64,000 bases of DNA from Chloroflexota bacterium (lineage in GTDB: Bacteria; Chloroflexota; Dehalococcoidia; UBA6926): the NCBI GenBank assembly GCA_026713485.1, contig JAPOOK010000051.1:914-64913 (forward strand), given 5' to 3'. The stretch's first letter is position 1. Every line of letters begins with the position of its first letter. This document shows, piece by piece, positions 18,442 through 63,925 of the stretch. A program made the translations under genes and the position numbers. The notes under the pieces were generated by a model. The model was not told the origin of the DNA and did not search any database. It was given only the letters and a program-made list of their open reading frames with translations.

Positions 18442-18581
18442 ATTCGTAGTCACTTCCTGTTTGAGAATGTCTCTCACGCTATTGCCCTGCGTGGTGGGGA
18501 AATAAGTGTAGCGGATTGGACGGAGTGGGGCTATGGGGGTAGGCGGGTTCGTCTTGAGCCTGTCGAAGGACGAACAGGAGG

Positions 18582-23059: not shown

Positions 23060-24430
23060 CTACGGTATCGACGGATCGTAATCCATCCCGATGTGGCCCT
23101 TCTTGTCGAACTCCGCGTACTCCTCGTCTGAATAGCCCAACACCGACTTATAGATATATTCGTTGTCCTCGCCCAGACGTGGCGAGTGGCGACGGGGCCC
23201 AACCCCGGGATTGTTCATCGACTTGAACGGCGTCATTAGCGCCTTATGCGTCCCCGCCTCCGGGTGTGTCACCCGCGTGAAGAATCCACGATGCTCCAGA
23301 TGCCGGTCCTCGGTCGCGTCGCGTTCATTAATCACAGCGCCGGACGGTACCCCCACCAACTGAAGCTGTTCCATGATCCATGAGGCGTGCTTTTCTGCCG
23401 TCCACGCGCTGATGATGACGTCCAACTCCGCCCTGTTCTCAAACCGTGATTCGTTGTCCTTGAAGCGCGGATCATTCACAAGCTCCGGATGACGCATCCT
23501 CTCGCACAGCGCCTGCCACTGCTCCTCATTCCGGCACGCGATCGTCACCCACTGGTCTTCGCCCTGCGTTCGATACACGTTGTGCGGCGCCAGATAGAAA
23601 TGGTTGTTGCCCATCTGCGTCCACACGCGCCCGTTCATGCTGTAGTCCATCACGAAATCGCCAAGCAACGGCACAAAATTCTCCGCCGTCGGCGCTTCGA
23701 TAAGCAGCCCCTTGCCGGTGCGCTTGAGGTATCGCTTGCCCATCAGGAACGCAAGTGTCGCGCCGATGCCGCTCGCCGCGTCCGACGGCACGCCCGCCGG
23801 CGCATACTCCGGTGACAGGTCGGGATACGTCCGAATCAGCGGATGCCCTGAGATGGCCTCCATGTGATTGCCCCAGGAACGATAGCTCTTGTACGGCCCG
23901 TCCAGCCCGAACGCCGGCATCCGAATCATGATCAGCTTCGGGTTGATCTCAGAGAGCCGTTCCCATGTGATGCCCTGACGTTCCATGCTTTGCGGCAGAT
24001 TGTTCTCAACCAGCGCGTCTGAAACGGCAACGAGTCGCTCCAGTGCCTCCTGACCCTCTTCTGTCCGCAGATTCACGGTCATCGACAACTTGTTGCGGCC
24101 ATGCGCATTGAAAACGGCGCTGCGATTCCACGGGCGTTCCCCCGGCTCACTGTCCGGCATCCCCATGCCCATATTCGTCTGAGCCTGCACCGTCGCAAGC
24201 GCGGGGCGCGCCAGCATTCCCCGCGTCGTGGACGCAAAATGCGTCGTCGACTCCACCCGTATAATCTCCGCGCCCCAGTCCGCCAACTGCATCGTCCCGT
24301 ACGGACCGGCAAACACGACCGTGAAGTCGATAATGCGCATTCCGGCCAGCGGCAGGTCAGGATCGGGCTTCGTAGGGTTGCCCGGGTTCGGCGCCCCGAG
24401 ACTATTCACACTTGAGTTATCCGCTGTCAT
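23060..24430 (-). CDS. Family III CoA-transferase (CaiB/BaiF), B-type subunit, copy 1
   Basis: MRIIDFTVVFAGPYGTMQLADWGAEIIRVE N-terminal CoA-transferase III signature and conserved Asp region (IEAPTAENF). Confidence 0.8.
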   Translation of the reverse strand: MTADNSSVNSLGAPNPGNPTKPDPDLPLAGMRIIDFTVVFAGPYGTMQLADWGAEIIRVESTTHFASTTRGMLARPALATVQAQTNMGMGMPDSEPGERPWNRSAVFNAHGRNKLSMTVNLRTEEGQEALERLVAVSDALVENNLPQSMERQGITWERLSEINPKLIMIRMPAFGLDGPYKSYRSWGNHMEAISGHPLIRTYPDLSPEYAPAGVPSDAASGIGATLAFLMGKRYLKRTGKGLLIEAPTAENFVPLLGDFVMDYSMNGRVWTQMGNNHFYLAPHNVYRTQGEDQWVTIACRNEEQWQALCERMRHPELVNDPRFKDNESRFENRAELDVIISAWTAEKHASWIMEQLQLVGVPSGAVINERDATEDRHLEHRGFFTRVTHPEAGTHKALMTPFKSMNNPGVGPRRHSPRLGEDNEYIYKSVLGYSDEEYAEFDKKGHIGMDYDPSIP

Positions 24431-24447
24431 GGCTGTCTGCTCCGTTC

Positions 24448-25680
24448 CTAAACAACCCCATCCGCTCTCAGGCCGGCGATATCCTCGGCGCTCAGCCCAA
24501 GTTCCGTCAGAACCTCGCCCGTGTGCTCGCCCAGCAGTGGCGCCCGCCGCCTCTTCGGCATTTCCGCGCCCTCGCGGTGCAGCTTGTGGTGATATCCCGG
24601 GTACTTGATCGGCCCTGTTGTCGGGTGGTCGATCTCCTGGAAATAGTTGCGCGCCATGAACTGCGGATTGTTAATGAGATCTTCGATCGTGTTAAGGGGC
24701 CCGCCCAATACGGCAAACTCCTCGCACGCCGCCCGCACCTCTTCTTTGGAGCGCTCCAGCGTCCACGGCACGATGTACGCCAGAAACTCGTCGATGCGAT
24801 CCGGCTCCGCCCGGCCCTCCGCCGTCCCCCACTCCGGCGTCTCCAGCAACTCTTCCATACCGATCATCCGGATGATGTTGGGGATAAACCGAGGCCCGCC
24901 GGTCATAAGGAAATAGCCGTCGGAGCACGGATGCACGCCGCCGCCCACCGCCACCGCGCGCCCCGGTCGGGTCCCAAGATGCCCCGTGTATTGATAGCCC
25001 ATCAGGCGACCAAGCCGCATATCGATGGAGTGCATGGCCGTCTCAAAGACGCTAACGTCCATGTAATCGCCGTCTGCGTCACGGAACTCCACCTGGAACA
25101 GTCCCAACGCGGAGGCCAGCGCCGCTGCATACCCCGCGTGGTAGCTGACCATCCGGCCCGCCGTCTTCAGCGGTTCGTTATCAGCGTCGCCGGAACTGAT
25201 CATGCTCCCGCCCATCGCGTACAGGTTTAGCTCGATGCCGATGTAGTCCCGGTACGGCCCGTCCTGCCCATAGTTTGAGACGGACGTCATCACCAGCTTG
25301 GGGTTGATCTTCTTCAGGTCCTCATACCCCAGCCCAAGCGCCTCCATCGTCCCGGGGGAAAAACTCTCCACCACAATCTGCGCGCCCTTAACAAGCTCCT
25401 TCACGATCTCACGGCCCCGCTCCGACTTGAGATCGAGCGTGACGGACCGCTTGTTGGTGTTCAGGAACATGAACAGGCCGCTGCGCTCAAGCCCAGGCAC
25501 GTCCTTATAGAACGGAGGCATGGATCGCGTGGGATCGCCTGTCTCAGGCCTCTCGATCTTGATGACATCCCCGCCGTAGTCGCCAAGGATACGGGTACCG
25601 AAAGGGCCGGCCGTCATATGCGTCAGATCGATAATGCGCACATCATCCAGCGGCATGATTGGCGTCCCGGGTGTCGTCAT
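24448..25680 (-). CDS. Family III CoA-transferase (CaiB/BaiF), A-type subunit, copy 1
   Basis: VRIIDLTHMTAGPFGTRILGDYGGDVIKIE. ~57% identical to 27047..28336. Confidence 0.8.
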   Translation of the reverse strand: MTTPGTPIMPLDDVRIIDLTHMTAGPFGTRILGDYGGDVIKIERPETGDPTRSMPPFYKDVPGLERSGLFMFLNTNKRSVTLDLKSERGREIVKELVKGAQIVVESFSPGTMEALGLGYEDLKKINPKLVMTSVSNYGQDGPYRDYIGIELNLYAMGGSMISSGDADNEPLKTAGRMVSYHAGYAAALASALGLFQVEFRDADGDYMDVSVFETAMHSIDMRLGRLMGYQYTGHLGTRPGRAVAVGGGVHPCSDGYFLMTGGPRFIPNIIRMIGMEELLETPEWGTAEGRAEPDRIDEFLAYIVPWTLERSKEEVRAACEEFAVLGGPLNTIEDLINNPQFMARNYFQEIDHPTTGPIKYPGYHHKLHREGAEMPKRRRAPLLGEHTGEVLTELGLSAEDIAGLRADGVV

Positions 25681-25724
25681 CCTCTTCTCCCCGTTCCCTC
25701 TAGATAACGCCTCAGTCCCTTCGC

Positions 25725-27044
25725 CTAATCGGCAGGGTCGAGGTCGTAATCCATGCCGATATGACCGGCTGCTTCGTACTCGGCGTAGTCCTTATCGGAA
25801 AAGCCCAGCAACTCCTTGTACACATACTCGTTGTCCTCGCCGAGGCGCGGCGGTCCCCACCGATGCCGACGCGGCGTATTCTTCGCCTTCCAGAGCGTGC
25901 TCGTGTACAGGTGCGTTCCGACCTCCGGGGCCGTCAACTCCTCCCAGAAACCGATTTCCTTCATATGTGGGTCTGCGTAGGCGTCCGACTCGGCCATCAC
26001 CGTGCCTGCTGCGATGCCGTTCGCCTGCAGCACGTTCATCGCCTCGATGGCGTCCTGTGTTACCGTCCAGGTCAACAGCTCGACATCCAGCTCGTCGTGA
26101 TGTTCCTGCCTCCCAGCGAGCGTCGCAAAGCGGCTGTCCGCCGCCAGGTCGGGCCGCTGCATGACAGTCCCGGCCACCGCCCGCCACGCCTCATCCGACT
26201 GCACACTGATGGCGATCCATCGATCATCCCCCACGCACGGGTACACGCCCTGCGGCGCATAGATCGGGTCTCGATTCCCCTGGTGCTCGGTTCGCAGACC
26301 GTTCATGGAGTAGTCCATGAACTGATCTCCCAGGTACGTCATGAAATTCTCGGCAGTTGAAAGCTCGATGAACAGCCCCTCGCCGGTCTTATCCCGGTGG
26401 CGGAGCCCCGCCGAAAACGCCAACGCCCCCGCCGCTCCGCCCGCCGCGTCCGCCGTCAACGTGTTCCCCGTCAGGCTCGGGTCCTCGCCCCGGTACCCCA
26501 TGAACGAGTAGTGGCCGACGACCGCCGCCATGTGGCTGCCGAACGTTCGGTAGTTCTTGTACGGGCCGTCGATGCCGAAAGCCGGCTGGCGGATCATGAT
26601 GGCGCGTGGATTCACCTTGTGAACACGCTCCCACGTGACGTTCACGCGCTCCATGCTGATGGGCACGTTGTTTTCCATGATCCCGTCGGATATCTGCAGC
26701 AGCCGATCAAATACCTCTTGCCCCTCAGGACGTCGCAGATCGACGGTCATGCTCCGCTTGTTGCGAGCGTGCGCGTTGAATGAGGCCCATCGATTCCACG
26801 GCCTCTCACCGGGCTCATGATCCGGGAACTGCGCCGATCCGCCTCCCAAACTCGGCATACCTCTATCGGGCCGCGGCATCATGCCCCGCGTCGTAGGCGG
26901 GAAGTGCTTGATCGATTCAATGCGAATGATCTCCGCGCCCCAATCCGCCAGCATCTGCGTGCCATAAGGCCCCGCCCAAACGACCGTGATATCGAGAATC
27001 CGCACACCCTCAAGGGGCAGCCGACGTGATCCGGTGCTGACCAT
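25725..27044 (-). CDS. Family III CoA-transferase, B-type subunit, copy 2
   Basis: VRILDITVVWAGPYGTQMLADWGAEIIRIE. Paralog of 23060..24430. Confidence 0.8.
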   Translation of the reverse strand: MVSTGSRRLPLEGVRILDITVVWAGPYGTQMLADWGAEIIRIESIKHFPPTTRGMMPRPDRGMPSLGGGSAQFPDHEPGERPWNRWASFNAHARNKRSMTVDLRRPEGQEVFDRLLQISDGIMENNVPISMERVNVTWERVHKVNPRAIMIRQPAFGIDGPYKNYRTFGSHMAAVVGHYSFMGYRGEDPSLTGNTLTADAAGGAAGALAFSAGLRHRDKTGEGLFIELSTAENFMTYLGDQFMDYSMNGLRTEHQGNRDPIYAPQGVYPCVGDDRWIAISVQSDEAWRAVAGTVMQRPDLAADSRFATLAGRQEHHDELDVELLTWTVTQDAIEAMNVLQANGIAAGTVMAESDAYADPHMKEIGFWEELTAPEVGTHLYTSTLWKAKNTPRRHRWGPPRLGEDNEYVYKELLGFSDKDYAEYEAAGHIGMDYDLDPAD

Positions 27045-27046
27045 TC

Positions 27047-28336
27047 CTACACCACCCCTTCCGACCGAAGACCGGCAATCTCCGCCTCGTCGCGTCCCAA
27101 CACATCGCGCAGAATCTCATCTGTATGCTCTCCCAGCAGAGGAGCGCGTTTACGGGCGGGCAGCCCGCTGCCGTCCACAAAATGCAGCTTCACGTGATAG
27201 CCGGGGTAGGCGATAGGCCCGGTTGTCGGATGATCGATCTCCTGGAAGAACTGCGTATGCTGCAGTTGCTCATCGTTGTGCAGGTCTTCGAACGAGTTGA
27301 TCGGCCCGCCCAGCACGCCAAACTCTTGGCACTCCGCGCGGATCTCCTTCTTGGTGCGCTCCAGCATCCACGGCACAATCACAGCCAACGACTCATCGAG
27401 CCGCTCCGGCGCCGATCGCGCCATCGGCGTCGACCACTCTGGCGTCTGTAGCAGGTCGCCCATGCCCACCATCTGCATGAAGCGCGGGAACATCGCCGGC
27501 CCCGCCGTCGTCATGAAATAACCGTCCTGGCAGATCCACGTCCCGGAACCGATAGCCCCTGCCGGCCACGGTCGTGTTGAATTGCCCCCGCCGTACTGGT
27601 ACCCCATCAGGTAGCTCTGGCGACGGTCGATGGCGCCCATCCACACCGGGAGCGCTCCCACGTCCAGGTGATCGCCTTCGCCGCTTGCCTCGACGCTCAG
27701 CAAGTGGATGGACGTGGCTGCCGCCGCAACCGCCCCCACCTGGTACGCCGCCACGCGGCCCCCGAAGTTCAGCGGTTCCCGCTCCGGGTGGCCGGTATTG
27801 ATCATCGCCCCGCCCATCGCGTAGGAGGTTATTTCCGTCGCCTCCCAGTCGCGATACGGCCCCGTCTGGCCGTAGTTGCTGATGGACGTCATGATCAGGC
27901 GCGGGTTCACAGCGCGCAGCGTCTCGTAGTCCAGCCCCAACGACGGCATCACGCGCGGCCGAAAACTCTCAACCAGCACGTCCGCGTCTTTCACCAGGTC
28001 GAGAACGATCTGCCGCCCGCGCTCCGACTTGAGGTCCAACGTCATGGAGCGCTTGCCAAGATTGGTGTACATAAACAATCCGCTGCGCTCAAGGCCCGGC
28101 TGATCCTCGTAGAACGGCGGAATATCCCGCCCCGGATCGCCCACACCGGGCCGCTCGATCTTGATCACGTCAGCGCCCCAATCCGCGAGACGACGCGTCC
28201 CAAACGGCCCCGCAACGTGCCACGTCAGGTCAATGACCCGAAGGCCGCTAAATGGCAAGACCGCTGCGTCCTGCCGCTCCCCTTGTTGTTGGCTTGCCAT
28301 AGACATGCCACCCATCCTCCCCAATGGATGCCGCAT
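27047..28336 (-). CDS. Family III CoA-transferase, A-type subunit, copy 2
   Basis: LRVIDLTWHVAGPFGTRRLADWGADVIKIE. Its stop overlaps the start of the downstream B-type gene (ATGA). Confidence 0.8.
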   Translation of the reverse strand: MRHPLGRMGGMSMASQQQGERQDAAVLPFSGLRVIDLTWHVAGPFGTRRLADWGADVIKIERPGVGDPGRDIPPFYEDQPGLERSGLFMYTNLGKRSMTLDLKSERGRQIVLDLVKDADVLVESFRPRVMPSLGLDYETLRAVNPRLIMTSISNYGQTGPYRDWEATEITSYAMGGAMINTGHPEREPLNFGGRVAAYQVGAVAAAATSIHLLSVEASGEGDHLDVGALPVWMGAIDRRQSYLMGYQYGGGNSTRPWPAGAIGSGTWICQDGYFMTTAGPAMFPRFMQMVGMGDLLQTPEWSTPMARSAPERLDESLAVIVPWMLERTKKEIRAECQEFGVLGGPINSFEDLHNDEQLQHTQFFQEIDHPTTGPIAYPGYHVKLHFVDGSGLPARKRAPLLGEHTDEILRDVLGRDEAEIAGLRSEGVV

Positions 28337-28395
28337 TATGGCACTTGCCGCCCCGCCGCGAAAGGGTAGAGCGCCCCATTATTCCGCACAATCAA

Positions 28396-28434
28396 TATGG
28401 GTTGTATGGGTGCAGGAGTATGGGTAGTATGGGT
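28396..28434 (+). promoter_or_regulatory. Four direct repeats of TATGGGT (spacing 9/14/9) immediately upstream of vapB; putative antitoxin operator
   Basis: TATGGGTtgTATGGGTgcaggagTATGGGTagTATGGGTctATG read directly from the sequence. Confidence 0.4.
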
Positions 28435-28436
28435 CT

Positions 28437-28700
28437 ATGAAGACGACTCTCGAAATCCACGATGAACTCCTACGCCGTGCAAAGCTGCACGCGAAGAAAA
28501 AGGGACGCACACTGCGCTCAGTGGTGGAGGATGGGCTTCGTCGCGCTCTCGACGACGAGCAACCGCCCAACCGGTACAAAATGCCGGACATGAGGGTCGG
28601 AGACCCCAACGGGGAAAACCCGCTCGAAAAGTACACGTGGGCGGAACTCCGGGACATGATCTACGAGAGGCCCGAATACGGAGAGTCAGAACCTGAGTGA
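28437..28700 (+). CDS. vapB: Type II antitoxin (VapB-like, RHH/DNA-binding N-terminus)
   Basis: 87-aa basic N-terminus. Overlaps the downstream PIN toxin gene by 4 nt (ATGA). Confidence 0.6.
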   Translation: MKTTLEIHDELLRRAKLHAKKKGRTLRSVVEDGLRRALDDEQPPNRYKMPDMRVGDPNGENPLEKYTWAELRDMIYERPEYGESEPE

Positions 28701-29137
28701 TAGCTGTCGATTCGAACCTGCTCGTCTATGCCCACCGCTGGGAAGCCACTGAAGACTATGAAGCCTTTGCGCTGATCCAGTCCCTGGTGGATGGCGACGA
28801 TGCCTGGGCCATTCCGTGGCCATGCATCTACGAGTTCTTCGGAGTCGTAACGAACCGCCGTATCTGGCGAGACAGTGCCACCACACCGGAACAGGCATGG
28901 TTGCAGATATCCGCATGGGCCGCCTCACCATCCCTGCGCCTACTGGGCGAAACAGACGGGTTTCTGGAAATCCTGGGACGCTTTGCTCAGCGACCGCGCG
29001 TCAGGGGCGGTGTCATCCACGACGCGCGGATAGCCGCGATTTGTGTGGCCCATGGTGTGAATACGTTGCTTACCAGGGATCGCGACTTCGCCCTCTTCCC
29101 CGAACTTCCAACCCGTGATCCCTTCTCAGCCCGGTAA
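28697..29137 (+). CDS. vapC: PIN-domain ribonuclease toxin VapC
   Basis: MIAVDSNLLVYA (Asp5), followed by conserved acidic residues (TRDRDF). Confidence 0.7.
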   Translation: MIAVDSNLLVYAHRWEATEDYEAFALIQSLVDGDDAWAIPWPCIYEFFGVVTNRRIWRDSATTPEQAWLQISAWAASPSLRLLGETDGFLEILGRFAQRPRVRGGVIHDARIAAICVAHGVNTLLTRDRDFALFPELPTRDPFSAR

Positions 29138-29149
29138 TCGTCCCGTCCC

Positions 29150-29926
29150 CTACCGCTCCAAATCCCAAAGCCCCCGGCCGCCCGCGTCCACGCCGCCGTC
29201 AACGGAAAGCACTTGTCCCGTCACCCACGACGATTCGTCGGACGCAAAATAGAGCGCCGCGTGCGCGATGTCTGACACATGCCCCCGCCGACCTAGCGCC
29301 TGCTCTGGCACATCAATGCCGTCCGCATCAGCGCCAAGCCGCTGGCGAATCAACCCCGGCGCAACCACGTTCACCCGGATATTGTCCTGCCACAGTTCCC
29401 GCGCCAAGTTGCGCGCCAGTCCGATAACACCTGCTTTTGCAGCGCCATACGCGACATTGGAGCCGCGCTGAACGCTCTCGCTTGCCGTGATGAAGATGAT
29501 CGATCCGCCGCCCTGCTGTTTCATCACCGGCTGCATGGCCCGCGCCAGGTTTGACGGCCCCTCCATCGTGTTCCCGATAGCCTGACGCCAAAATCCCGGC
29601 TCCACATCGCTCAACGTCACGGATGGATCGAAGAAGCCGCCCCCGCCGCTGTAGAGGACATCTACACGTCCCCCGCCGGCGTCACGCGCCGCATAAACGA
29701 TTCGCTCCGCGTCCGCCGCATCCGCCACATCCCCCTGAATTGCTTGCGCTCTTTCTGAAGCCGGTGTTCCCAACCGCCGAACAACACCCAGCGTTTCCTC
29801 TAGGTGCTCCGCGCCCCGCGCAACAAGGATGACCGTCGCCCCCTCCTGCGCGCATAGCAGGGCAGTGGCCCGCCCCATCCCAGGCCCCGCCCCAGATACC
29901 AGAACCGTCTTCCCCTCAAGCCTCAT
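29150..29926 (-). CDS. SDR-family oxidoreductase
   Basis: TGAGPGMGRA Rossmann motif and YGAAKAG catalytic YxxxK. Confidence 0.8.
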   Translation of the reverse strand: MRLEGKTVLVSGAGPGMGRATALLCAQEGATVILVARGAEHLEETLGVVRRLGTPASERAQAIQGDVADAADAERIVYAARDAGGGRVDVLYSGGGGFFDPSVTLSDVEPGFWRQAIGNTMEGPSNLARAMQPVMKQQGGGSIIFITASESVQRGSNVAYGAAKAGVIGLARNLARELWQDNIRVNVVAPGLIRQRLGADADGIDVPEQALGRRGHVSDIAHAALYFASDESSWVTGQVLSVDGGVDAGGRGLWDLER

Positions 29927-30027
29927 GTGAGCGTTCTCCTTTGGCGGTCAAATACTTGGCAATGCTGTCTGTGGAGTGATTGTGTCGGAGCGCCGTGAAT
30001 CGTGACAAGTGGCCTAACTGCCCCTAA

Positions 30028-30450
30028 TCACACCGGGATGACGTAGAAATCCACTCGCCTGTCGCCGGGCTCGACAGTGAACGTAGTGTCGTTGATGAAA
30101 ATCAGCGCGCCATCACTATCGTAGAATCGCGCGCCGACCGAGTATTCGTTCCTGTCGCTGAGTGGCTCATCCCATTCCAACTCATACTCAAGCGGCAGCG
30201 TTGTTACGTTGTCATATTCGCGACTCGCAATCTCTATCGACGATGCATCGGCCAACGACACATCCCGCAGCTGCACGACAACCCGCGACGAGGGTATGTG
30301 CGACAACTCATCCGCCCCCTCAAGAGTGATCTCGCCCCGGAGCGAGGTCCCCCCGCCACACCCACTGACGACAAGCATCAACGCCGCCAACCCCAACAGA
30401 CAGGCCGACAATAGCGCTAACCGCCGCGGTCCTAAACGTTCACTCCTCAT
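30028..30450 (-). CDS. YbaY/YscW-like lipoprotein
   Basis: Signal peptide plus LVVSGC lipobox. ITLP..LEYELEWDE...YSVGARFYDSDGALIF pattern of YbaY-type lipoproteins. The start may instead be ATG 30480. Confidence 0.4.
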   Translation of the reverse strand: MRSERLGPRRLALLSACLLGLAALMLVVSGCGGGTSLRGEITLEGADELSHIPSSRVVVQLRDVSLADASSIEIASREYDNVTTLPLEYELEWDEPLSDRNEYSVGARFYDSDGALIFINDTTFTVEPGDRRVDFYVIPV

Positions 30451-30526
30451 CGCCGTTCGCCCCCTTGGCTCGCGACTCATTCACAAAGATAACCCGTCTC
30501 CACCCCATCCGTGCCATAGTTACACC

Positions 30527-31327
30527 ATGGACGAAATCCTCCTCGCCCTCATGCCGGTTCTCGGCTTTCTCGCCGGAACAATCGGTGCTCTCATCGGCGC
30601 AGGCGGAGGATTCATCGCCGTCCCCATCCTCCTCATTGTCCTCCCTGACGAATCGCCCGGCATCATCACCGGCATGTCGCAATCAATGGTGCTGATGACA
30701 TCCCTCTCCTCCACGGTCGCCTATATCCGCCAGAAGCGCATCGAGTACCGCTGGGCCGCTGTCATGGCGGTGACCGGCCTGTTCGGTATGGCCATCGGGG
30801 CGTACATCGTTGAGCAGCTTGAGCGCGGCGCGTTCCAGACCGTATTTGGCATTGCCGCCCTCATCCTCATGTCGTACTTGTTAATCAGACCGATCCGTGG
30901 CCGTGGCGCTGCCCGCACGCTTGAAGAGGCTGAGGATGCTCGTGTCCCCCTGACCCGCCGGCGCGCCATCATGCTCGGCGTTGTTGGCCTCGCGACGGGT
31001 ACGATGGGCGGCCTCCTTGGCGTCGGTGGCGGCATCGCCATGGTTCCCATCATCGTGCAGGCATTCGTATTCCCCGCACACCTGGCCACGGCAACCTCCC
31101 AACTCGTCATCCTCATCACCAGCCCCGCCGCCATTGCCGTCCACCTGGTCGAATCACCGCTGCTGGACAAGATCCTGCCAATCGTCCTGCTCGGTATCGG
31201 CGCGATCATTGGCGCGCAGGTCGGCGCGCGGGTATCCCGCAAAATCTCTGCGCCATGGATCGTCCGTATCCTGGCAATTGGCCTCGGCATCGTCGGCGTG
31301 CGCCTGATCCTCAGCGGCCTGGCATAG
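30527..31327 (+). CDS. TauE/SafE (DUF81) family anion exporter
   Basis: Two internal repeats with GxGGG motifs (GALIGAGGGFIAVPILL / GGLLGVGGGIAMVPII). Start at MDEILL (ATG 30527). The ORF-track N-terminal extension overlaps the divergent gene. Confidence 0.7.
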   Translation: MDEILLALMPVLGFLAGTIGALIGAGGGFIAVPILLIVLPDESPGIITGMSQSMVLMTSLSSTVAYIRQKRIEYRWAAVMAVTGLFGMAIGAYIVEQLERGAFQTVFGIAALILMSYLLIRPIRGRGAARTLEEAEDARVPLTRRRAIMLGVVGLATGTMGGLLGVGGGIAMVPIIVQAFVFPAHLATATSQLVILITSPAAIAVHLVESPLLDKILPIVLLGIGAIIGAQVGARVSRKISAPWIVRILAIGLGIVGVRLILSGLA

Positions 31328-31397
31328 CCCTACGCGCCGATTGCGGGTACGGGCGTACAATCAATCGGATAAAGATTCGATTCTGAGGGGGTGGGGA

Positions 31398-32261
31398 ATG
31401 GAGCATCAATACATCAAGGTCGATAGAGACGATCTCGGCGTTGTCACGATTGCGTTCAACGTGCCCGAAGCGCTGAACCCGTGGCTGATTCCGCTCATGG
31501 AGGAGATGACCGTCGAACTCGATCTCATTGCCGCCAACCCTGATGACCGAGTTGTCATCTTCACTGGCACCGGACGCTCATTCTCAGCTGGGGGCGATGT
31601 CGGCCCCATGGCGGGCGCGGGCGGCGACCGCCCCATGCCGCACTTCATGAAAGAGAAAGAGAACCGCCAGCGCGGCGGCTGGAACATCCCCACAATGTCC
31701 GCCACGGAGCGAATGAAGAACGAGATGCTCAACGGACGCCGCATCCACATGCAGGTCTGGGAACTGGACAAGCCCACCATCGCCGCCGTCAACGGCGTCG
31801 CGGCTGGCGCAGGCTGCGACCTCGCCCTCGCCTGCGATATCCGCCTCGCCAGCACCAACGCCCGCTTCATCGAGGTCTACGTGCGACGCAGCCTGGTTCC
31901 CCTTGATGGCGGAGCGTACTGGGCCCCCTATCTGCTGCCACACGGCATCGCGATGGAGATGCTCCTCGCCGGAGAGGCCCTCAGCGCCGAAGACGCGCAT
32001 CGTTTCGGCCTCGTCAACCGCGTCTATGAACCGGACGAGTTGATGCCCGCCGCGCAGGAGCTTGGCCGCAAGATGGCGCAGGGCCCCGCCGTCACCCAGC
32101 AGCTCGTCAAGCACATGGTGCGAGAGATTCACACCAAGGGCTACGAAGAGCACTGGAAGTACATCGACGCCGCGCACCAACACACACGAGAAACCCACGA
32201 CTACAACGAGGGCGTCCGCTCCTTCGTCGAAAAGCGCCCCCCCGAATTCAAAGGCTACTAG
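31398..32261 (+). CDS. Enoyl-CoA hydratase/isomerase family protein
   Basis: Crotonase motifs (FTGTGRSFSAGGD, AAVNGVAAGAGCDLALACDIRLA). Start MEHQYI with GGGGG RBS. Confidence 0.7.
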   Translation: MEHQYIKVDRDDLGVVTIAFNVPEALNPWLIPLMEEMTVELDLIAANPDDRVVIFTGTGRSFSAGGDVGPMAGAGGDRPMPHFMKEKENRQRGGWNIPTMSATERMKNEMLNGRRIHMQVWELDKPTIAAVNGVAAGAGCDLALACDIRLASTNARFIEVYVRRSLVPLDGGAYWAPYLLPHGIAMEMLLAGEALSAEDAHRFGLVNRVYEPDELMPAAQELGRKMAQGPAVTQQLVKHMVREIHTKGYEEHWKYIDAAHQHTRETHDYNEGVRSFVEKRPPEFKGY

Positions 32262-32276
32262 CGGCACTACACACAT

Positions 32277-32317
32277 CCCCTCCCCCCCTTGGTGGGGGAG
32301 GGCTAGGGTGGGGGTGA
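32277..32317 (+). repeat. Type-A palindromic repeat (CCCCTCCCCC...GGGGGAGGG + TAGGGTGGGGGTGA); terminator-like hairpin with G-quadruplex-like tail
   Basis: Same element at 39853..39892, 56798..56840 and 59988..60024. Each lies within ~20 nt after a stop codon. Confidence 0.6.
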
Positions 32318-39353: not shown

Positions 39354-39500
39354 TTGTGAACTGAAAACTGTCGCAAGCATAGCCCACACACTGCGCGCGG
39401 CGGAATGCCCTCCGATACGGTACGATGACGGCAGACTCGGATGCCCGGAACACATTGGACACCCACTCAACTTATGGCCGAGACAGGAGGCAATTGCGCT

Positions 39501-39839
39501 ATGGCACTGCTTTGTTTCGATGTTGACGGAACTCTCGACACCGGTGACGGACCCATTCCCGCGTCTGTCCTCCACGATCTGGAGGGCATGGGCCACAAGG
39601 TCGTCATCGTCTCTCCGTCCCCCCTGCGGCCCAAAGACGCCGGCTTTCCTGAGTTTCTGAGTGTCGACCGCAAGAAGAACCTTCTTGATGCCCTTGAGGC
39701 CCACCCGGATGATCGGCCCGTCTACATCAGCGACAACGATGGGGATGACAAGCTCTCTGAGGAAGTCAACTTCGAGTACGTCCACCCACTCTTTTGGACA
39801 CCCTTCTACACGCGTCTAACCTCTGACGGCGCCAACTAG
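39501..39839 (+). CDS. Minimal HAD-like phosphatase (112 aa)
   Basis: Motif I LCFDVDGTL and motif IV ISDNDGDD. AGGAGG RBS 9 nt upstream. Confidence 0.45.
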   Translation: MALLCFDVDGTLDTGDGPIPASVLHDLEGMGHKVVIVSPSPLRPKDAGFPEFLSVDRKKNLLDALEAHPDDRPVYISDNDGDDKLSEEVNFEYVHPLFWTPFYTRLTSDGAN

Positions 39840-39852
39840 CCATCCACAGAAT

Positions 39853-40075
39853 CCCCTCCCCCTTGATGGGGGAGGGTTAGGGTGGGGGTGATCTTCCCCG
39901 CTCACCCTGAGCTTGTCGAAGGACACCCCTCCGTCATTCCCGCGAAAGCGGGAATCTTAAACCAGGAGCGCATACAACCTCGCCCCCTATTCACCCTGAG
40001 CTCCGGCTCATCCGCTCATCCTGAGCTCGTCGAAGGGCGCGCCGCGCCCCAATTCCTCACGCAACTTGACAAGCT
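39853..40075 (+). repeat. Cluster of intergenic repeat modules: type A (39853..39892), B (CACCCTGAGCTTGTCGAAGG, 39903..39925, plus degenerate copies near 39990 and 40015), C (GTCATTCCCGCGAAAGCGGGAATC, 39933..39957)
   Basis: Same modules recur at 43217, 45972, 56846..57010, 57688..57760, 58938..59050 and 63868..63925. Confidence 0.6.
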
Positions 40076-40319
40076 TTATTCCGCCAGTTAACGCCATAGA
40101 CAGCAAAATGCCGGTCTCCTGTTGCATTAAAGAACCATTAATCCTGCATGTTGCGAAGCATATGCGTTCTGGCAGCTTTGAAACAGACATAAAGTGCGCT
40201 TATGCCGAATACGTCAATCTCCTGCTCCTCTAAACCCCTAGCCCTCGTGATGCGCGTTCCTGTTGCCCGTGCCCACGCGCCTCGTCTCACGCTATCGCGT
40301 AGGCGCGGCGTAGATAGGC

Positions 40320-43216: not shown

Positions 43217-43240
43217 CCTTGGTCATTCCCGCGAAAGCGA
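43217..43240 (+). repeat. Type-C repeat module (GTCATTCCCGCGAAAGCGAGGAAC) in the ribE-ribD intergenic gap
   Basis: Matches copies at 39933, 56986 and 63868. Confidence 0.5.
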
Positions 43241-43291
43241 GGAACCACCGTTTATCCCTTCTTGATGCCCCTGATTATACGCCCGAGCTGC

Positions 43292-45871: not shown

Positions 45872-45971
45872 GTGCGTCCCCCTCGGGCTGTCATTCCGCG
45901 CCCCCCTTGAGACGCTGTCTGTCCATGATGCAGGAAACGCACCGTCGGCGCAGAGGGATAGCACCATTCCC

Positions 45972-45996
45972 GTTCGCCCTGAGCTTGTCGAAGGGT
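45972..45996 (+). repeat. Type-B repeat module (CGCCCTGAGCTTGTCGAAGGG)
   Basis: Lies in the divergent intergenic region between the SIMPL lipoprotein gene and lepB. Confidence 0.5.
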
Positions 45997-46053
45997 GAAC
46001 CCCGTCGCGGACCGGGCTACAAACGAATCCGAAACTATAATGGACGGACACTC

Positions 46054-46779: not shown

Positions 46780-46855
<76 letters not shown>

Positions 46856-49141: not shown

Positions 49142-50710
49142 CTAGCCTCGTCCGCGTTCACCACCGGAGCCGTGCTCACCGCCGGACTCACTGCCGGAGC
49201 CATGCTCACCACCACCTTCACTGCCGCTGCCGTGCTCGCCGCCGGACTCACCGCCGCCGACTTCGGCATGGGCGACCCATCCGGTGAACGGCGCCTGCGT
49301 GGAGGGCATGTTGACTCTGGCCACCCAGCCCGGACCCAGGTTGACGGGATTCGTCGGCCCGAGCTCGGTTCCGTTCGACAGGTGCACCTCGATCCTGACT
49401 CGATTCAAGATGCTCCTCGTCGTATTCTCCACGGTGCCCTTGAACGAATTACTGGAAGCGTCATAGCCCAGGATCAGCCGCGCGCCACTGCGGATCTCGT
49501 CGAAGGTCTGGTCAGGCGCCAGCTGATTGGCCCCGCTGCCCTCTTCGCTGCCGGACTCTCCACTACGTTCACTGCCGGACTCGGCGCCGCTGCCTTCAGC
49601 ACTGTTGCTTCCGGAGCCTTCGCTGCCGCCTTCACCACCGGGCCCGTGGCCCTCGCCACCGGAACCCTCGCCGCCACCGCCTTCGCCTGAGCCTTCGCCG
49701 CCGCCACTTCCCTCAGTGCTCTGTCCCGGCATGTGAGGCACAGGTCCGGTGCCGCCGCAGTCGAACACTTCCAGGTGCACGACGTACCCGTCAAAGGAAA
49801 CTCCTGCGAGGCTCGGCTCGCTGGCCAGCGGCACGCTCGTCGCGGCCGATTGTCCGGGACTCAGGTGTCCCAGTACATCGGGGCCAAGCTCGCCAACAGT
49901 CGTCGTGCCCGACTTCAGGTGCGGTTCGGCCTGCACGTAGCAGAGCACCTGCGGGAGCGTGTTTGTGACCAGTGACTGGACCGATTGAGTTGCCGGATCG
50001 AACCGCGCAACGACGTCCAGTCCGCCAAGGTTGCCCGCCCAGGTATCACTGAGTGGAATGATGGGGCTGGACATCTCGGCTTCACCGGCCTCAGCACCCA
50101 TGCCGCCGCTCTCAGTGCCCTCGGGCCCCTCATTACCGCCCTCGCTGCCGCTGCCCTCGCCGCCGGACTCGCCACCGCCTTCACCGCTGCCAACTTCGGC
50201 ATGAGGTGTCCATCCGGTGAACGGTTCCACGGTTGAGGGCAGGTTGACCGGCAACACCTGACCCGGTGCCAGGTCGACAGGCGTCGTCGGCCCGAGCTCT
50301 GTGCCGTTGTCGAGGTGCACTTCGATCCTGACCCGCGTCAGGGTGTTATTGGTTGTGTTCTCCACCGTGCCTGTGAAGGCATTGCTCCCGGCGTCGTAGT
50401 TCAGGATCAAGCGCGCGCCGCTGCGAACCGTGTCGAAGGTCTCGTCAGGCGCCAACTGGTTTGCGCCGCTGCCCTCTTCACTGCCGGACTCGGAGCCTTC
50501 ACCGCCGGATTCTCCACCGGATTCACCGCCGGAGCTGTGCTCGCCGCCGCTCTCTCCGCCGGAACTCTCCTGGCTCGTGCCCTCGCTCCCGGACTCCGGA
50601 CCTTCGCTGGATTCGTTGTTGCTTGTGCAGCCGCTGAGGATCACCACCAGGAATAGCGCCCCCACCGCAACTACCAGGAACATACTTCTCATCAGCTTCT
50701 TGATAATCAT
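49142..50710 (-). CDS. Lipoprotein with an internally duplicated ~100-aa domain, Gly/Glu/Ser-rich acidic linkers and a His-containing (GGEHGSGSE)n tail
   Basis: LSGC lipobox. Two domain copies GANQLAPD(E/Q)TFD..RSGARLIL.YDA..N.F.GTVENTT...L.RVRIEVHL.NGTELGPT.PV.L.PG are >75% identical at protein and DNA level. Confidence 0.5.
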   Translation of the reverse strand: MIIKKLMRSMFLVVAVGALFLVVILSGCTSNNESSEGPESGSEGTSQESSGGESGGEHSSGGESGGESGGEGSESGSEEGSGANQLAPDETFDTVRSGARLILNYDAGSNAFTGTVENTTNNTLTRVRIEVHLDNGTELGPTTPVDLAPGQVLPVNLPSTVEPFTGWTPHAEVGSGEGGGESGGEGSGSEGGNEGPEGTESGGMGAEAGEAEMSSPIIPLSDTWAGNLGGLDVVARFDPATQSVQSLVTNTLPQVLCYVQAEPHLKSGTTTVGELGPDVLGHLSPGQSAATSVPLASEPSLAGVSFDGYVVHLEVFDCGGTGPVPHMPGQSTEGSGGGEGSGEGGGGEGSGGEGHGPGGEGGSEGSGSNSAEGSGAESGSERSGESGSEEGSGANQLAPDQTFDEIRSGARLILGYDASSNSFKGTVENTTRSILNRVRIEVHLSNGTELGPTNPVNLGPGWVARVNMPSTQAPFTGWVAHAEVGGGESGGEHGSGSEGGGEHGSGSESGGEHGSGGERGRG

Positions 50711-56783: not shown

Positions 56784-56797
56784 ACAACCACAACAGT

Positions 56798-57010
56798 CCC
56801 CTCCCCCCCTCGTGAGGGAGGGTTAGGGTGGGGAGGGAGATGCCCCCCGTTCACCCAGAGCTTGTCCAAGAGCACACCGCCGCCCAACCCTGTCATTCCG
56901 AGCGCAGCCGAGGAATCTAAAATCGTGATTAGAAAGCCCCCACTCACCCTGCGCTCATCAAAAAATGGACCCCGCACCCCACCCGTCATTCCCACGAAAG
57001 CGGGAATCCA
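56798..57010 (+). repeat. Repeat cluster: type A (56798..56840), B (56849..56872), D (GTCATTCCGAGCGCAGCCGAGGAATCTAAAATCGTGATTAGAAAGCCC, 56893..56940), B-like (56947..56965), C (56986..57010)
   Basis: Module order and sequence match the other clusters. Read directly from the sequence. Confidence 0.6.
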
Positions 57011-57077
57011 GTACCCAGATCAGAATAGGTTAGGGTAGTGGCAGTGTCAGCATGAGCTGCTGGTCTGATACTACGGA

Positions 57078-57647
57078 TTGAACATGAACGAAGAATCCCC
57101 GCTTTGGTTAATCGTTACCGGCCCTCCGGCAGCCGGCAAGACAACCCTGGCCAGACATATTGCGCCGGATCTGGGCCTCCCCCTATTTGAAAAGGACGTC
57201 TTCAAAGACAACCTCTACGCAGACTTGGGCTTTGGGGACAAGGACTGGTCTCGACGAATCGGCATAAGCGCGATCAACTTGCTGCTACTCACTGCGGATC
57301 GAATGCTGCAGGCTGGCGCCTCCCTTATCACTGAAAGCAATTTCTATCGCCAGTTTTCCTCGCAACAAGTCAGGGAAATTGCAGACGGCACTAAGGCTAA
57401 AGTCATCCAGGTTCATTGCTCCGCATCTCCGGATGTCTTGATTGCGAGGAATGCCGCCCGGCTTGACCAGAATCAACAGCGCATTGGCCACCACGTCATG
57501 CCCAACGAAGAACTGTTGAAAGGACTCAGAAATGGGACATGGGAGCCCCTGGACATTCCCTCAGAGATAATTCGTGTCGATACTTCCAGCGGATTCGATT
57601 ATGCAGATGTGGCAGGGCATATTCGACGTCTCTACGCCGACGACTAA
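57078..57647 (+). CDS. Stand-alone P-loop kinase (AAA_33/zeta-toxin-like NTP-binding) protein
   Basis: Walker A GPPAAGKTTLA. Resembles the C-domain of 10796..12409. Flanked on both sides by repeat clusters. Confidence 0.5.
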   Translation: MNMNEESPLWLIVTGPPAAGKTTLARHIAPDLGLPLFEKDVFKDNLYADLGFGDKDWSRRIGISAINLLLLTADRMLQAGASLITESNFYRQFSSQQVREIADGTKAKVIQVHCSASPDVLIARNAARLDQNQQRIGHHVMPNEELLKGLRNGTWEPLDIPSEIIRVDTSSGFDYADVAGHIRRLYADD

Positions 57648-57687
57648 TCTGCTACTGCCCTCATTTCCACAGTTCCCCGCACCCCAC

Positions 57688-57760
57688 CCGTCATTCCGCG
57701 CGCAGCCAAGGAATCTAAAATCGTAACTAGAAAGCCCCCCCGTTCACCCTGATCCCCGCC
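57688..57760 (+). repeat. Repeat modules D (57688..57735) and B (57742..57760)
   Basis: GTCATTCCGCGCGCAGCCAAGGAATCTAAAATCGTAACTAGAAAGCCCCC followed by CGTTCACCCTGATCC. Confidence 0.55.
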
Positions 57761-57778
57761 GCAAGCTGACTCCCGCCC

Positions 57779-58174
57779 CTAGCTCTCCCGCTCTTTCCGC
57801 CCCGTAATCGCCGCAACAAGCAACATCAGCGCCGATGGCAGGCAGAAGATGCCGATCGACCACACGGCGAGTACGCAGAAACCCAACAACAATACAAACG
57901 GTATCCAGAGCAGCGGGCCGCGTACCCGCTTAGTCCTGTCTGTGAATCGAAGAGTCACCACCGGGATAACGGTCAATACAACGGGAACCATCAACGGCAC
58001 AAAGATATAAGCGCCATTTACCTCCAACCCACTTCGCTGTGTGGCCATCATTCCACCATCAGAGCTTGACGAGTAGCCGGAGTAAACCGGCCCAAAAGCA
58101 AAGAAAAGTAGCACAGCCCACGTCAACAGATGAGCGACTACCGCCAACGTGATCGCTAGTCTAGGCCGTCTCAT
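57779..58174 (-). CDS. Hypothetical integral membrane protein (4 TM)
   Basis: Hydrophobic ORF with codon usage consistent with the window. No recognisable family. Confidence 0.35.
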   Translation of the reverse strand: MRRPRLAITLAVVAHLLTWAVLLFFAFGPVYSGYSSSSDGGMMATQRSGLEVNGAYIFVPLMVPVVLTVIPVVTLRFTDRTKRVRGPLLWIPFVLLLGFCVLAVWSIGIFCLPSALMLLVAAITGRKERES

Positions 58175-58214
58175 GAGGCCATCCCTTTCCTACGTCGCCA
58201 CCATGCAAGAGTAG

Positions 58215-58916
58215 TCAATGGGTGGGAACCGAGAGGTGATTAAGCGTTCGCCGCCCCACCTCCACCCCCAGTACCACGTCCAACATCTCCAGAATCGCCT
58301 GTGTTGGCACGCGATCTCCGATGTTTATACCGACGTACCCCCACACCACACCGCCGTCCGGTCGGATGACAAACGTCGCGGGCGCGGCCACACCGTCCCC
58401 CAGCAGATTGAACACCCCGTAGCTCTTCGACACGTCCTCGCTCGTGTCCGCCAGGATCGGGAACTCCGCCCCCGCCATCACCTCCATCCGCTCGGCATCG
58501 ACCAACAAGTCCGTGCTGATCGCCGCGAGGCCGACGTTCCGGTTCTCAAACTCGTCGTAGAAACTCTGCAACTCGACCAGTTGCTGCTGGCAGATGCCTC
58601 AACCGTAGCTGCGATAGAAGACCACCACGAGCGCATCGCGCCCCGCCAACAGATCATCCAACGAGTGCCTCTCGCCAGTGCCCGTAGACAGTGAGAAATC
58701 CGGCGCTTGTGGCGCTTCGGGCTCCGGAGTCTCTGTTGGAACCGCGGTGGGCGAAGGCAAAGGCGTGTCCGTCGGGGACGGCGTTACGGTTGGAGAGGGC
58801 GCGAGAGTTGGAGCGGGTGTTGGAGATTCCTCCGAGCAACCCGCGAGCACGACGCTCAGCGCCAGCATGGCCACCACCAACAACAATTGGAAGGGCACGA
58901 AACGACGGGTAATCAC
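58215..58916 (-). CDS. Lipoprotein Prx-like/AhpC-TSA-family redoxin interrupted by an in-frame TGA (58599..58601) at the first Cys of the CxxC motif; selenoprotein candidate (UGIC) or pseudogene
   Basis: ORFs 58599..58916 and 58215..58571 are in the same frame. The joined product reads ...LVVVFYRSYG-[TGA]-GICQQQLVEL..., matching the family motif FRGxW-CPxC-RRHL. N-terminus has an LAGC lipobox and a TP-rich linker. Confidence 0.45.
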
Positions 58917-58937
58917 CCCTCCATACTAATCGGCCTC

Positions 58938-59050
58938 AGCTCCTCCTGAGCCGGTCGAAGGGCGACGAATACTGTCATTCCGAGCGCAGCCGAGGAATCT
59001 AAAGCCGTGATTGGGAAGCCCTCTCGCTCACCTTGAGCTTGTCGAAGGGC
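58938..59050 (+). repeat. Repeat modules B (58938..58962), D (58970..59020), B (59025..59050)
   Basis: CTCCTGAGCCGGTCGAAGGG / GTCATTCCGAGCGCAGCCGAGGAATCTAAAGCCGTGATTGGGAAGCCC / CTCACCTTGAGCTTGTCGAAGGG. Confidence 0.55.
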
Positions 59051-59132
59051 TCCCCGCTCCGGGATTCAGACACCTACTTGTTCCCTCAGCGATACTTAAA
59101 CGATATGAAAGATCGGAGGATTTGGTAATCGA

Positions 59133-59979: not shown

Positions 59980-60024
59980 AAAAAAATCCCTCCCCCCTGT
60001 GTGGGGGAGGGTGGTGGCGGGGAG
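59980..60024. terminator. Bidirectional intrinsic terminator (type-A hairpin) between convergent lipoprotein gene and rplT
   Basis: A7 + CCCTCCCCCC-TGTGT-GGGGGAGGG. On the minus strand the hairpin is followed by UUUUUUU just after the rplT stop. On the plus strand it follows the lipoprotein stop. Confidence 0.6.
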
Positions 60025-63867: not shown

Positions 63868-63925
63868 CATTCGTCATTCCCGCGAAAGCATGCCCCGTAC
63901 TCCGATACGGGGCGGGAACCCAGAA
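63868..63925 (+). repeat. Type-C repeat module split by a nested 24-nt palindromic insert
   Basis: GTCATTCCCGCGAAAGC-[ATGCCCCGTACTCCGATACGGGGC]-GGGAAC. The insert is itself a hairpin (GCCCCGTA...TACGGGGC). Confidence 0.45.

Follow-up and report, generated by a model that had tools for sequence, protein, structure and literature searches.

What are the short, GC-rich palindromic repeats that recur between the genes of some Dehalococcoidia genomes, and what sets their arrangement? The question is raised by a 64-kb stretch of contig JAPOOK010000051.1 from a Chloroflexota bacterium (the window, by which we mean the whole stretch of DNA analyzed), in which the original prediction had described four sequence modules, A–D, recurring in different orders in intergenic DNA. 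We find that modules B, C and D are members of the CGTC-tagged superfamily of repetitive extragenic palindromic (REP) sequences, that all units of an array lie on the same strand and that this strand follows local GC skew rather than the orientation of neighboring genes. On balance, we consider it probable that the arrays are co-oriented clusters of short non-coding, non-autonomous REP-type repeats, spread or kept by a replication-linked, strand-specific process.

The modules recur where they had been reported, and none of them is expected there by chance. A pattern search of both strands of the window, with up to three mismatches allowed, found three copies of module A (32294, 39868 and 56814), five of module B (39903, 40017, 45975, 56852 and 59029), three of module C (39933, 43222 and 56985) plus an interrupted copy at 63873, and three of module D (56892, 57690 and 58974); for each module, the number expected from dinucleotide-preserving shuffles is zero. 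An independent de novo repeat search of the window recovered the same families, together with a weak B copy (58936) and a weak A copy (59988). A covariance model trained mostly on copies from other genomes, when applied with filters off to both strands of the window, gave 11 matches with E < 0.5 and added a B-type copy at 18546–18573 that was absent from the initial list. All 11 of these matches lie on the + strand, as does every module copy found by the pattern search. Two GTCATTCC octamers, at 34039 (+) and 9846 (−), come without a hairpin and were set aside as chance occurrences. Nor are the modules confined to the window: among the matches listed, they occur in 47 loci of other Dehalococcoidia genomes.

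This uniform orientation does not mirror that of the genes. The − strand encodes 32 of the 55 genes in the window, translation genes among them, and carries no module copy. What the repeats do follow is base composition, as the + strand has negative GC skew in 15 of 16 4-kb bins. Because the skew is negative in + genes (−0.066) and − genes (−0.116) alike, it is of the replication type rather than a consequence of how the genes are oriented. The window is probably part of a single replichore whose leading strand is the − strand. At third codon positions, the skew is very strong, −0.29 in + genes and −0.135 in − genes. The same link is seen in relatives. Across 45 informative Dehalococcoidia loci, the window included, the B, C and D copies have a net strand that coincides with the locally C-rich strand in 39 cases and with the G-rich one in 6 (binomial p = 5e-7), net strand correlates with 8-kb skew (Spearman rho −0.76) and module A is co-oriented with the other modules. 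Coding bases in the loci are divided almost evenly between the repeat strand and its complement (49.6:50.4), and flanking genes, when scored relative to repeat orientation for 69 arrays in relatives, give ++ contexts in 22 cases, +− in 22, −+ in 16 and −− in 9. One relative (locus L006) shares the gene order of the window around pdxA in inverted orientation, yet its module D upstream of pdxA still occupies the C-rich strand, antisense to pdxA. Single copies in other bacteria show the same polarity, by 12:4 in Planctomycetota, 4:0 in Verrucomicrobiota and 9:0 in Firmicutes/Actinobacteria.

That module strand follows GC skew and not gene orientation indicates a strand-specific process at the DNA level, and from this we infer a process that would act on one DNA strand, as single-stranded DNA (ssDNA) at the replication fork. 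Hairpins are symmetric, so simple selection for or against them cannot orient the units; an asymmetric tag, loop or tail must be read on one strand. The units accumulate head-to-tail in intergenic spacers at which relatives differ in gene content, and they lie on the strand that follows replication-type GC skew rather than flanking genes; in the mechanism that we propose, a trans-acting enzyme would carry out the ssDNA process. This process might act at insertion or by differential survival. Effects on transcripts, from a hairpin a few nucleotides past a stop codon or from a possible G-quadruplex, would be secondary. If so, the repeats would be expected to change strand where replication starts and where it ends.

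The anatomy of the modules shows how they are related. Module C has a perfect 8-bp stem (ATTCCCGC/GCGGGAAT) closed by a GAAA loop in the copy at 39933 (−9.0 kcal/mol, z −5.1); the copy at 56985 has one mismatch and that at 43222 is degenerate. Its stem is preceded by an unpaired tag, CCGTC (39931 and 56983), TCGTC (63871) or GGTC (43220), and followed by a tail that reads CCA at 57009, at 63920 and in L068, L084 and L086 of the loci from other genomes, and CTT at 39957. Modules B and D have a 5-bp covarying Watson–Crick stem around an interior of 11–12 nt, GAGC-(GNAG[Y] or YTGY)-CGA, in which inner pairing requires G·A mismatches and a bulge. The tag is GCTC ahead of B; ahead of D it is CTGTC or CCGTC in the window and mostly TGTC or CGTC across loci. 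As the predicted folding energies are weak, covariation is the evidence for pairing in D and B. A search of the window and 119 fetched loci with the template [GCT]TCA-N4-GAGC-N3-6-CGA-N4 gave 236 matches, mostly with a G-N-A-G-Y loop, and the 4-nt stem is fully complementary in 205 of them. These complementary stems comprise 11 different sequences (TTCC/GGAA, CCCT/AGGG, TCCT/AGGA and TGCT/AGCA, for example). In a set of 34 distinct B/D variants, picked regardless of pairing, we counted 37 compensatory cells, as compared with 12.6 ± 3.3 in shuffles, none of 500 of which reached 37; four of the five outer pairs covary, and the score drops to a quarter in slid controls. B, C and D are thus one superfamily, with an unpaired tag, (C/T)GTC or, in B, GCTC, followed by an AT-initiated stem, and D and B differ from C only in the contents of that stem. 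The four modules of the original description thus recur as stated but are not four unrelated ones. Module A is a separate hairpin of 9–10 G/C base pairs with a G-rich tail that travels in the same arrays, and a fifth module, palindrome E (GCCCCGTA...TACGGGGC), is a further small palindrome of these arrays.

CGTC-tagged REPs carry the tag CGTC, or TGTC or CCTC, then an 8–9 bp stem whose start is nearly always complementary A–T, a 4–5 nt loop and the tail CCA, and Neisseria dRS3 is CGTC-1 of this superfamily (Di Nocera et al. 2013, BMC Genomics 14:522, PMC3733652). Module C agrees with CGTC-1 in its tag (CGTC, with variants GGTC and TGTC), its 8-bp stem that opens with A-T/T-A and its 4-nt loop and, for the copies that end in CCA, in its tail. 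In a text search by sequence, it is identical at 24 of 24 positions to a dRS3-type intergenic sequence of Neisseria gonorrhoeae printed in PMC7593972, and a close variant, ATTCCCGCGCAGGCGGGAATC, is the Neisseria REPIN master sequence (bioRxiv 10.1101/2021.07.10.451892). Modules D and B share with the superfamily their TGTC/CGTC/CCTC-like tags, the AT start and the absence of an adjacent transposase gene, but lack the perfect 8–9 bp stem and 4–5 nt loop of CGTC families 1–4. Text searches with D and B strings and their peptide translations returned no relevant literature match, and Rfam yielded no family for the repeats above its gathering threshold, whether in the window or in the 10 loci searched from several phyla, the overlaps at E < 10 being noise.

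Their arrangement differs as well. CGTC copies in Neisseria gather in mosaic intergenic regions, and among CGTC repeats head-to-head dimers prevail and head-to-tail pairs are negligible (PMC3733652), whereas the units in the window are head-to-tail singlets, all 11 or more of them co-oriented. Like the bacterial interspersed mosaic elements (BIMEs) of E. coli and the neisserial intergenic mosaic elements (NIMEs), the arrays are intergenic, mix REP hairpins with further short modules whose order varies, and are located where gene content varies. However, BIMEs alternate the orientation of their REPs and NIME units are bracketed by inverted dRS3, whereas units here keep to one strand per array and take their direction from replication-type skew. 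We conclude that the repeats belong to the CGTC-tagged REP superfamily, as a variant in the structure of D and B and in arrangement, and that their arrays are NIME/BIME-like mosaics. The published survey recorded CGTC repeats in Proteobacteria, Chlorobi, Bacteroidetes, Spirochaetes and Thermotogae, listed Chloroflexi for GTAG repeats only and did not address leading/lagging strand bias (PMC3733652). New here are the occurrence in Dehalococcoidia as co-oriented singlet arrays, a covarying GAGC...CGA subclass conserved between phyla and the coupling of repeat strand to replication-type skew.

How widely the D/B subclass is distributed was determined with a scan for the exact 26-nt D core, one genome per species, which yielded at least 119 stretches (8-kb loci, 934 kb in all). 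Among the matches listed, the record titles span 12 phyla: Chloroflexota (47 Dehalococcoidia/Chloroflexi loci), Bacteroidota (Hymenobacter isolates and others), Planctomycetota, Verrucomicrobiota, Acidobacteriota, Bacillota, Actinomycetota, Armatimonadota, Gemmatimonadota, Nitrospirota, Pseudomonadota and Patescibacteria. The exact core had no match in 2.9 million viral contigs (IMG/VR), and a D-doublet query of PLSDB found one plasmid only, a Hymenobacter megaplasmid. In Dehalococcoidia, Planctomycetota and Firmicutes, D is a singlet with a semi-conserved 3' tail, and in the Dehalococcoidia loci 25 copies are single and 2 paired. Modules A–E stand in varying order in these relatives (B-C-A-D, B-A-E-D, B-C-B-C-D and C-B-D, for example) but are always co-oriented. 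REPIN-like doublets, long inverted repeats whose left arm is the 26-mer, occur in Hymenobacter and some other taxa, and 20 of the 27 D copies in Hymenobacter have a partner within 200 nt. The Hymenobacter loci L003, L030, L055, L079, L081, L095 and L103 and plasmid NZ_CP095062.1 hold the D core in near-perfect palindromes of ~100 nt, laid out as GAAC-GTCATTCCGAGCGCAGCCGAGGAATC-TCGCGTGCTGA...TCAGCACGCGA-GATTCC...GAATGAC, and the 330-kb H. volaticus plasmid has eight copies of this palindrome. In a metagenome-assembled genome of Salinisphaeraceae (L099), two D doublets on the − strand (3798 and 5370), ~1.57 kb apart, have ~50 nt of identical left flank and could delimit a larger duplicated or mobile unit bounded by repeats.

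We raise tentatively, as an idea about which we have more doubt than confidence, that the GTCA/CGTC-tagged hairpins (C and D/B) constitute a single pan-bacterial family of strand-specific ssDNA elements, kept to the nucleotide in at least 12 phyla, oriented by the replication fork and spread by an enzyme other than a REP-associated tyrosine transposase (RAYT). The singlet arrays of Dehalococcoidia would then be the primary insertion product, with doublets in inverted orientation, as in Neisseria and Hymenobacter, being derived. A 26-mer that is kept to the nucleotide across phyla, together with covariation in its stem, points to a conserved recognition partner. CGTC-tagged REPs, including dRS3, are abundant, and the skew link, seen in several phyla, narrows the search for how they spread to a strand-specific and probably ssDNA-based process.

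Arrays mark synteny breakpoints and differ between relatives at orthologous sites. Locus L115 is 84–90% identical to the window over positions 25789–32254, and synteny ends exactly at the stop codon of an enoyl-CoA hydratase gene; past this point, the window has module A and then pdxA, and L115 has C, D and unrelated DNA. Loci L002, L068 and L086 have common flanking genes with 83–92% identity. The same spacer contains a 230-nt array in L002 and is only 60–120 nt long, without modules, in L068 and L086, and a variable segment of 3.4–3.9 kb lies between the same conserved genes. In the window, GC content falls to 53–56% at 56.9–58.3 kb, as compared with 60% overall, and arrays bracket this insert, in agreement with the proposal that the repeats concentrate around an accessory patch. 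The interrupted C copy at 63873 does carry palindrome E (63892–63913) nested in its 3' arm, and nested and variable arrays together bear out the description of REP-like elements that turn over. A second case of a palindrome within a REP hairpin is found in L006 at 5506–5640, where the right arm of a D doublet is split by a small palindrome (CCCGCGCTAGCGCG); the same locus has a degenerate module A remnant at 5360–5395, in the orthologous position upstream of pdxA. In addition, a full copy often comes after a truncated left half and a C-rich linker, at 39990 and 45890 in the window and in L002, L011, L076 and others. In these ‘stutters’ (L002 450–700; L011, L029, L076 and L119), a left half and a C-rich linker of 7–11 nt are repeated one to three times before the complete unit, as in GTCATTCCC-ACCCCAACTCC / GTCATTCCCGC-CCCAACTCC / full C, and the linker CCCAACTCCGT reappears in the 3' tail of the unit. 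For metagenome-assembled genomes (MAGs), the repeats are markers of synteny breakpoints.

Several observations weigh against a strand-specific ssDNA process carried out by an enzyme. The leading/lagging assignment comes entirely from 8-kb GC skew and not from a mapped origin or terminus, and most records outside Hymenobacter are MAGs with taxon labels as deposited. Under the usual skew convention, a C-rich strand serves as leading-strand template, whereas the top strand of IS608 lies on the lagging-strand template; the GTCA strand, with its G–T and tandem G·A pairs, is found on the C-rich strand, so that its polarity, if this is the active folded strand, would run counter to the IS608 rule. 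A nearest-neighbor DNA model gives −1.9 kcal/mol for D, no better than shuffles, and −4.5 kcal/mol for B, and, with C predicted to fold strongly, finds no asymmetry between top and bottom strands for the modules. G–T pairs account for 16 of 29 paired cells in the inner stem, and co-directional gene contexts are sense in 22 cases and antisense in 9, a mild preference and no rule; both leave room for a role at the RNA level. A mobilizing enzyme did not emerge either. Searches with E. coli RayT (tblastn), a regular expression for HUH...Y and a hidden Markov model of 108 diverse representatives found no Y1/RAYT gene, either in the window or across the 119 repeat-bearing loci (934 kb); a weak tblastn match to RayT in L049 falls within an unrelated 295-aa open reading frame (ORF) and was discarded. 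The best 120 homologs of E. coli RayT are all from Enterobacteriaceae. The 80 RAYT loci fetched from metagenomes, 46–97% identical to RayT, together carry 63 perfect GTAG-tagged hairpins; B/D-type repeats are absent from them, and a single stray CGTC type sits 2.8 kb from the gene. When the ORFs of the 119 loci were clustered all against all, they showed only generic large families in common with the window and no conserved neighbor gene. Finally, the strand bias could arise from retention just as well as from insertion.

These points bear differently on the alternatives. The repeats might be a classical REPIN–RAYT system, in which the modules are REP singlets left from inverted doublets and mobilized by a single-copy RAYT, a Y1 HUH transposase, encoded elsewhere in the genome. 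REPINs (Bertels & Rainey; Nunvar et al.; Ton-Hoang et al. 2012) are likewise short tagged hairpins, many-copy, non-autonomous and with a presumed ssDNA hairpin as substrate, the tag-plus-hairpin architecture of the modules parallels that of GTAG REPs and, in Hymenobacter and some other taxa, D copies pair up as inverted doublets. Bertels & Rainey attributed ATTCCCGCGCAGGCGGGAATC of Neisseria to a Group 2 RAYT (bioRxiv 10.1101/2021.07.10.451892), and a single RAYT per genome is easily missed in 8-kb samples. Nevertheless, the RAYT-linked tag is GTAG and not (C/T)GTC or GCTC, the Dehalococcoidia copies are co-oriented singlets, the profile search found no RAYT and the RAYT loci sampled from metagenomes have GTAG hairpins. 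CGTC repeats also ‘apparently lack a dedicated transposase’, and no tyrosine transposase gene flanked by them was found by Di Nocera et al. (PMC3733652). We therefore judge this explanation distinctly unlikely. The RAYT partner suggested at the outset is not supported in its E. coli-like form, and a distant Y1 or other enzyme may be encoded elsewhere in these genomes. The IS200/IS605 elements that move by ‘peel and paste’ have an orientation tied to the direction of replication and subterminal hairpins recognized on one strand, which the arrays recall, but the units have neither a transposase nor defined left and right ends, and, with GTCA as the active strand, their polarity would contradict the IS608 rule. 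In the Hymenobacter doublets, what look like 26-nt terminal inverted repeats enclose a core of 40–60 nt, as might be expected of miniature inverted-repeat transposable elements; no target-site duplication or parent insertion sequence (IS) was seen, and no neighbor gene recurs in the 119 loci.

Biased retention without any dedicated enzyme is fairly unlikely, in our estimate, but fits some features. Slippage during replication or gene conversion would amplify the units in place, and the orientation that survives would keep the better-folding strand (tandem G·A pairs, GNA loop, G-quadruplex tail) off the single-stranded lagging-strand template. Stuttered left halves and linkers before full copies in the window and at many loci fit local multiplication, and the placement of the GTCA strand, with its G–T and G·A pairs, on the C-rich strand and the degenerate state of the inverted A remnant in L006 fit orientation-dependent survival. 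Sheared G·A pairs and GNA triloops could be a source of strand-unequal folding. This explanation does not account for dispersal to hundreds of unrelated spacers or for nucleotide-level identity across phyla, however; the nearest-neighbor model gives no difference in stability between strands, and C, a perfect palindrome, is equally strand-locked. It is still less probable, and we think improbable, that the hairpins are kept mainly as landing sites for other mobile DNA, such as the IS110-family elements and phage that enter Neisseria dRS3 or small palindromes that enter loops, and that the arrays are scars at hot spots of gene exchange. Neisseria dRS3 is an established target of phage and IS elements, and palindromes nested in C (63892) and in the D arm of L006, as well as arrays that sit at synteny breakpoints and bracket a lower-GC patch, are what landing sites might leave behind. 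Against this, no integrase or transposase gene is recurrently adjacent, the exact D core is missing from the viral contigs searched and its doublet from all plasmids but one, and co-orientation and the skew link are left unexplained. Three other known systems were rejected on structure: a CRISPR array, because of the irregular spacing and the presence of several different modules; integron attC sites, as no GTTRRRY cores occur in the sequences read; and hammerhead-like cores, on anatomy.

A role at the RNA level is the remaining alternative, and module A is the unit on which it turns. According to this explanation, which we also hold to be rather unlikely as the principal one, the modules are transcribed with the upstream gene and serve as factor-independent terminators or 3' stabilizers, with G5-A-G3-NNA-G3-T-G5 folding as a G-quadruplex. 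Module A resembles an intrinsic terminator in being a GC-rich hairpin just past stop codons, and the three good copies in the window do lie 13–16 nt past + strand stops (at 32261, 39839 and 56783). The motif is canonical, with four G-tracts of the form G3+N1-3 and loops of 1–3 nt: G5-A-G3-YTA-G3-T-G5 at 32294 and 39868, and G3-A-G3-TTA-G3-T-G4 at 56816. In the ViennaRNA model, the predicted quadruplex (about −25 to −27 kcal/mol) comes close to the hairpin (−27 to −30 kcal/mol), with which it competes for the same two G-tracts. The excess of sense over antisense among co-directional contexts and the G–T pairs within stems point the same way, and many REPs are transcribed, as Di Nocera et al. 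argue (PMC3733652). Yet orientation tracks GC skew and not genes, with no copy on the strand that encodes most of the genes; one copy is antisense within the riboflavin operon, others occupy three divergent spacers and 16 of the 69 arrays in relatives are also in divergent spacers. Module A has no T-tract, its orientation is independent of genes and no Rfam family matches the modules. The original prediction held that module A always lies within ~20 nt of a stop codon and contains the vertebrate telomeric repeat. The former is true of the three good window copies and fails in relatives, where A stands 44–122 nt from a stop or after another module. The latter holds for two of the three window copies, which contain GGGTTAGGG, and the identity is incidental, since CTAGGG at 32303 and CCAGGG in relatives take its place; the TTA loop is likewise not kept. 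We conclude that termination or mRNA stabilization through a G-quadruplex is a weakly supported account of the main role of module A, and we continue to favor a strand-specific process acting on DNA.

An intrinsic terminator scan listed none of the three A copies and, as the only A-like hairpin, one at 59988–60011 on the − strand. This hairpin, with the T-run ATTTTTTT that follows it (59988–60021), is the ordinary intrinsic terminator of rplT and lies outside the array family, which excludes the weak ‘A’ of the de novo search as an array member; its likeness to module A explains why the two were grouped. It reads CCCTCCCCC-ACACAG-GGGGGAGGG, then ATTTTTTT, and stands 18 nt past rplT of the infC-rpmI-rplT operon.

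The individual units, all on the + strand, can be placed among the genes with Pfam matches and ORF reading. The B-type copy at 18546–18573, which has a longer stem (GTTCGTCTT-GAGCCTGTCGA-AGGACGAAC), lies at the junction of two − strand ORFs. Module A at 32277–32317 consists of the hairpin CCCCTCCCCC(CC)-TTGGT-GGGGGAGGG and the tail CTAGGGTGGGGGTGA and stands between the co-directional + strand genes for enoyl-CoA hydratase, 16 nt past its stop, and pdxA. The first long array, 39853–40040, has the order A-B-C-B'-B and lies between a HAD-like ORF (39441–39839) and an HU gene, both on the + strand. It begins with module A (39853–39891), 14 nt past the stop of the HAD-like ORF, and continues with a B copy (39899–39925; tag GCTC, stem ACCCT/AGGA, interior GAGCTTGTCGA), a C copy of the CGTC-1 REP type (39931–39957; CCGTC-ATTCCCGC-GAAA-GCGGGAAT-C), a truncated B left half (TTCACCCTGAGCTC, 39990–40003) that is a stutter ahead of a full copy, and that full B copy (CTCATCCTGAGCTCGTCGAAGGG, 40013–40040). 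Both strands of 39816–40190 contain spurious ORFs that arise from the array, with peptides MSFDKLRVSG, HPELVEG, VIPAKAGI, IPAFAGMT and PFDELRMSG, and such ORFs are likely to enter MAG annotations as hypothetical proteins. The degenerate C copy (43220–43247) fits in the 43-nt spacer between ribD and ribE, antisense to the − strand riboflavin operon. At 45890–45901, a C/D unit is truncated to its left half (GTCATTCCGCGC, then a C-rich linker), and a B copy (45971–45998) occupies the divergent spacer between a SIMPL gene (−) and a signal peptidase gene (+).

The second long array, 56798–57009, has the order A-B-D-B'-C and lies between + strand genes for a DUF1801 protein and a P-loop kinase. It comprises a module A variant (56798–56837), 15 nt past the DUF1801 stop, a degenerate B copy (56848–56874), a D copy (56890–56939; CTGTC-ATTCC-GAGCGCAGCCGA-GGAAT-C with the tail TAAAATCGTGATTAGAAAGCCC), a B fragment (CTCACCCTGCGCTCATC, 56943–56959) and a C copy with one mismatch and the tail CCA (56983–57009). 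A shorter D-B' array follows in the convergent spacer past the P-loop kinase gene, where a D copy with two mismatches and its tail (57688–57737) precedes a truncated B left half (CCGTTCACCCTGA, 57740–57752). The divergent spacer between a redoxin gene (−) and ORF 59133 (+) has the order B-D-B: a weak B copy (CTCCTCCTGAGCCGGTCGAAGGGCG, 58936–58961), a D copy with the exact core and tail (58972–59021) and a further B copy (59025–59052). Last is the C copy at 63871–63922, upstream of a − strand CoA-transferase gene, whose 3' arm is split by a 24-nt insert with palindrome E (GCCCCGTA-CTCCGA-TACGGGGC, 63892–63913) and which ends in CCA.

Some features of the window have no part in the arrays. A tRNA-Lys gene (anticodon TTT) at 46780–46855 (+) is the sole RNA gene found by Rfam and ARAGORN in the window. 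At 23060–28336 (−), four tandem paralogous genes of 410–456 aa are 72–82% identical over the repeated DNA, with a period of 1.3 kb. Another repetitive gene, a 522-aa ORF at 49142–50710 (−), has internal 30-nt periodic repeats and two duplicated blocks of ~300 nt (repeat families D1, D2 and D11), and its repeat is a low-complexity Gly/Ser-rich coding repeat. Finally, the redoxin ORF (58215–58916, −), of the AhpC/TSA type, contains one in-frame TGA at 58599–58601, reading ...FYRSYG-U-GICQQQ. Because the Pfam match (profile positions 40–122) begins directly after this codon, selenocysteine is likely at the predicted peroxidatic position of the redoxin.

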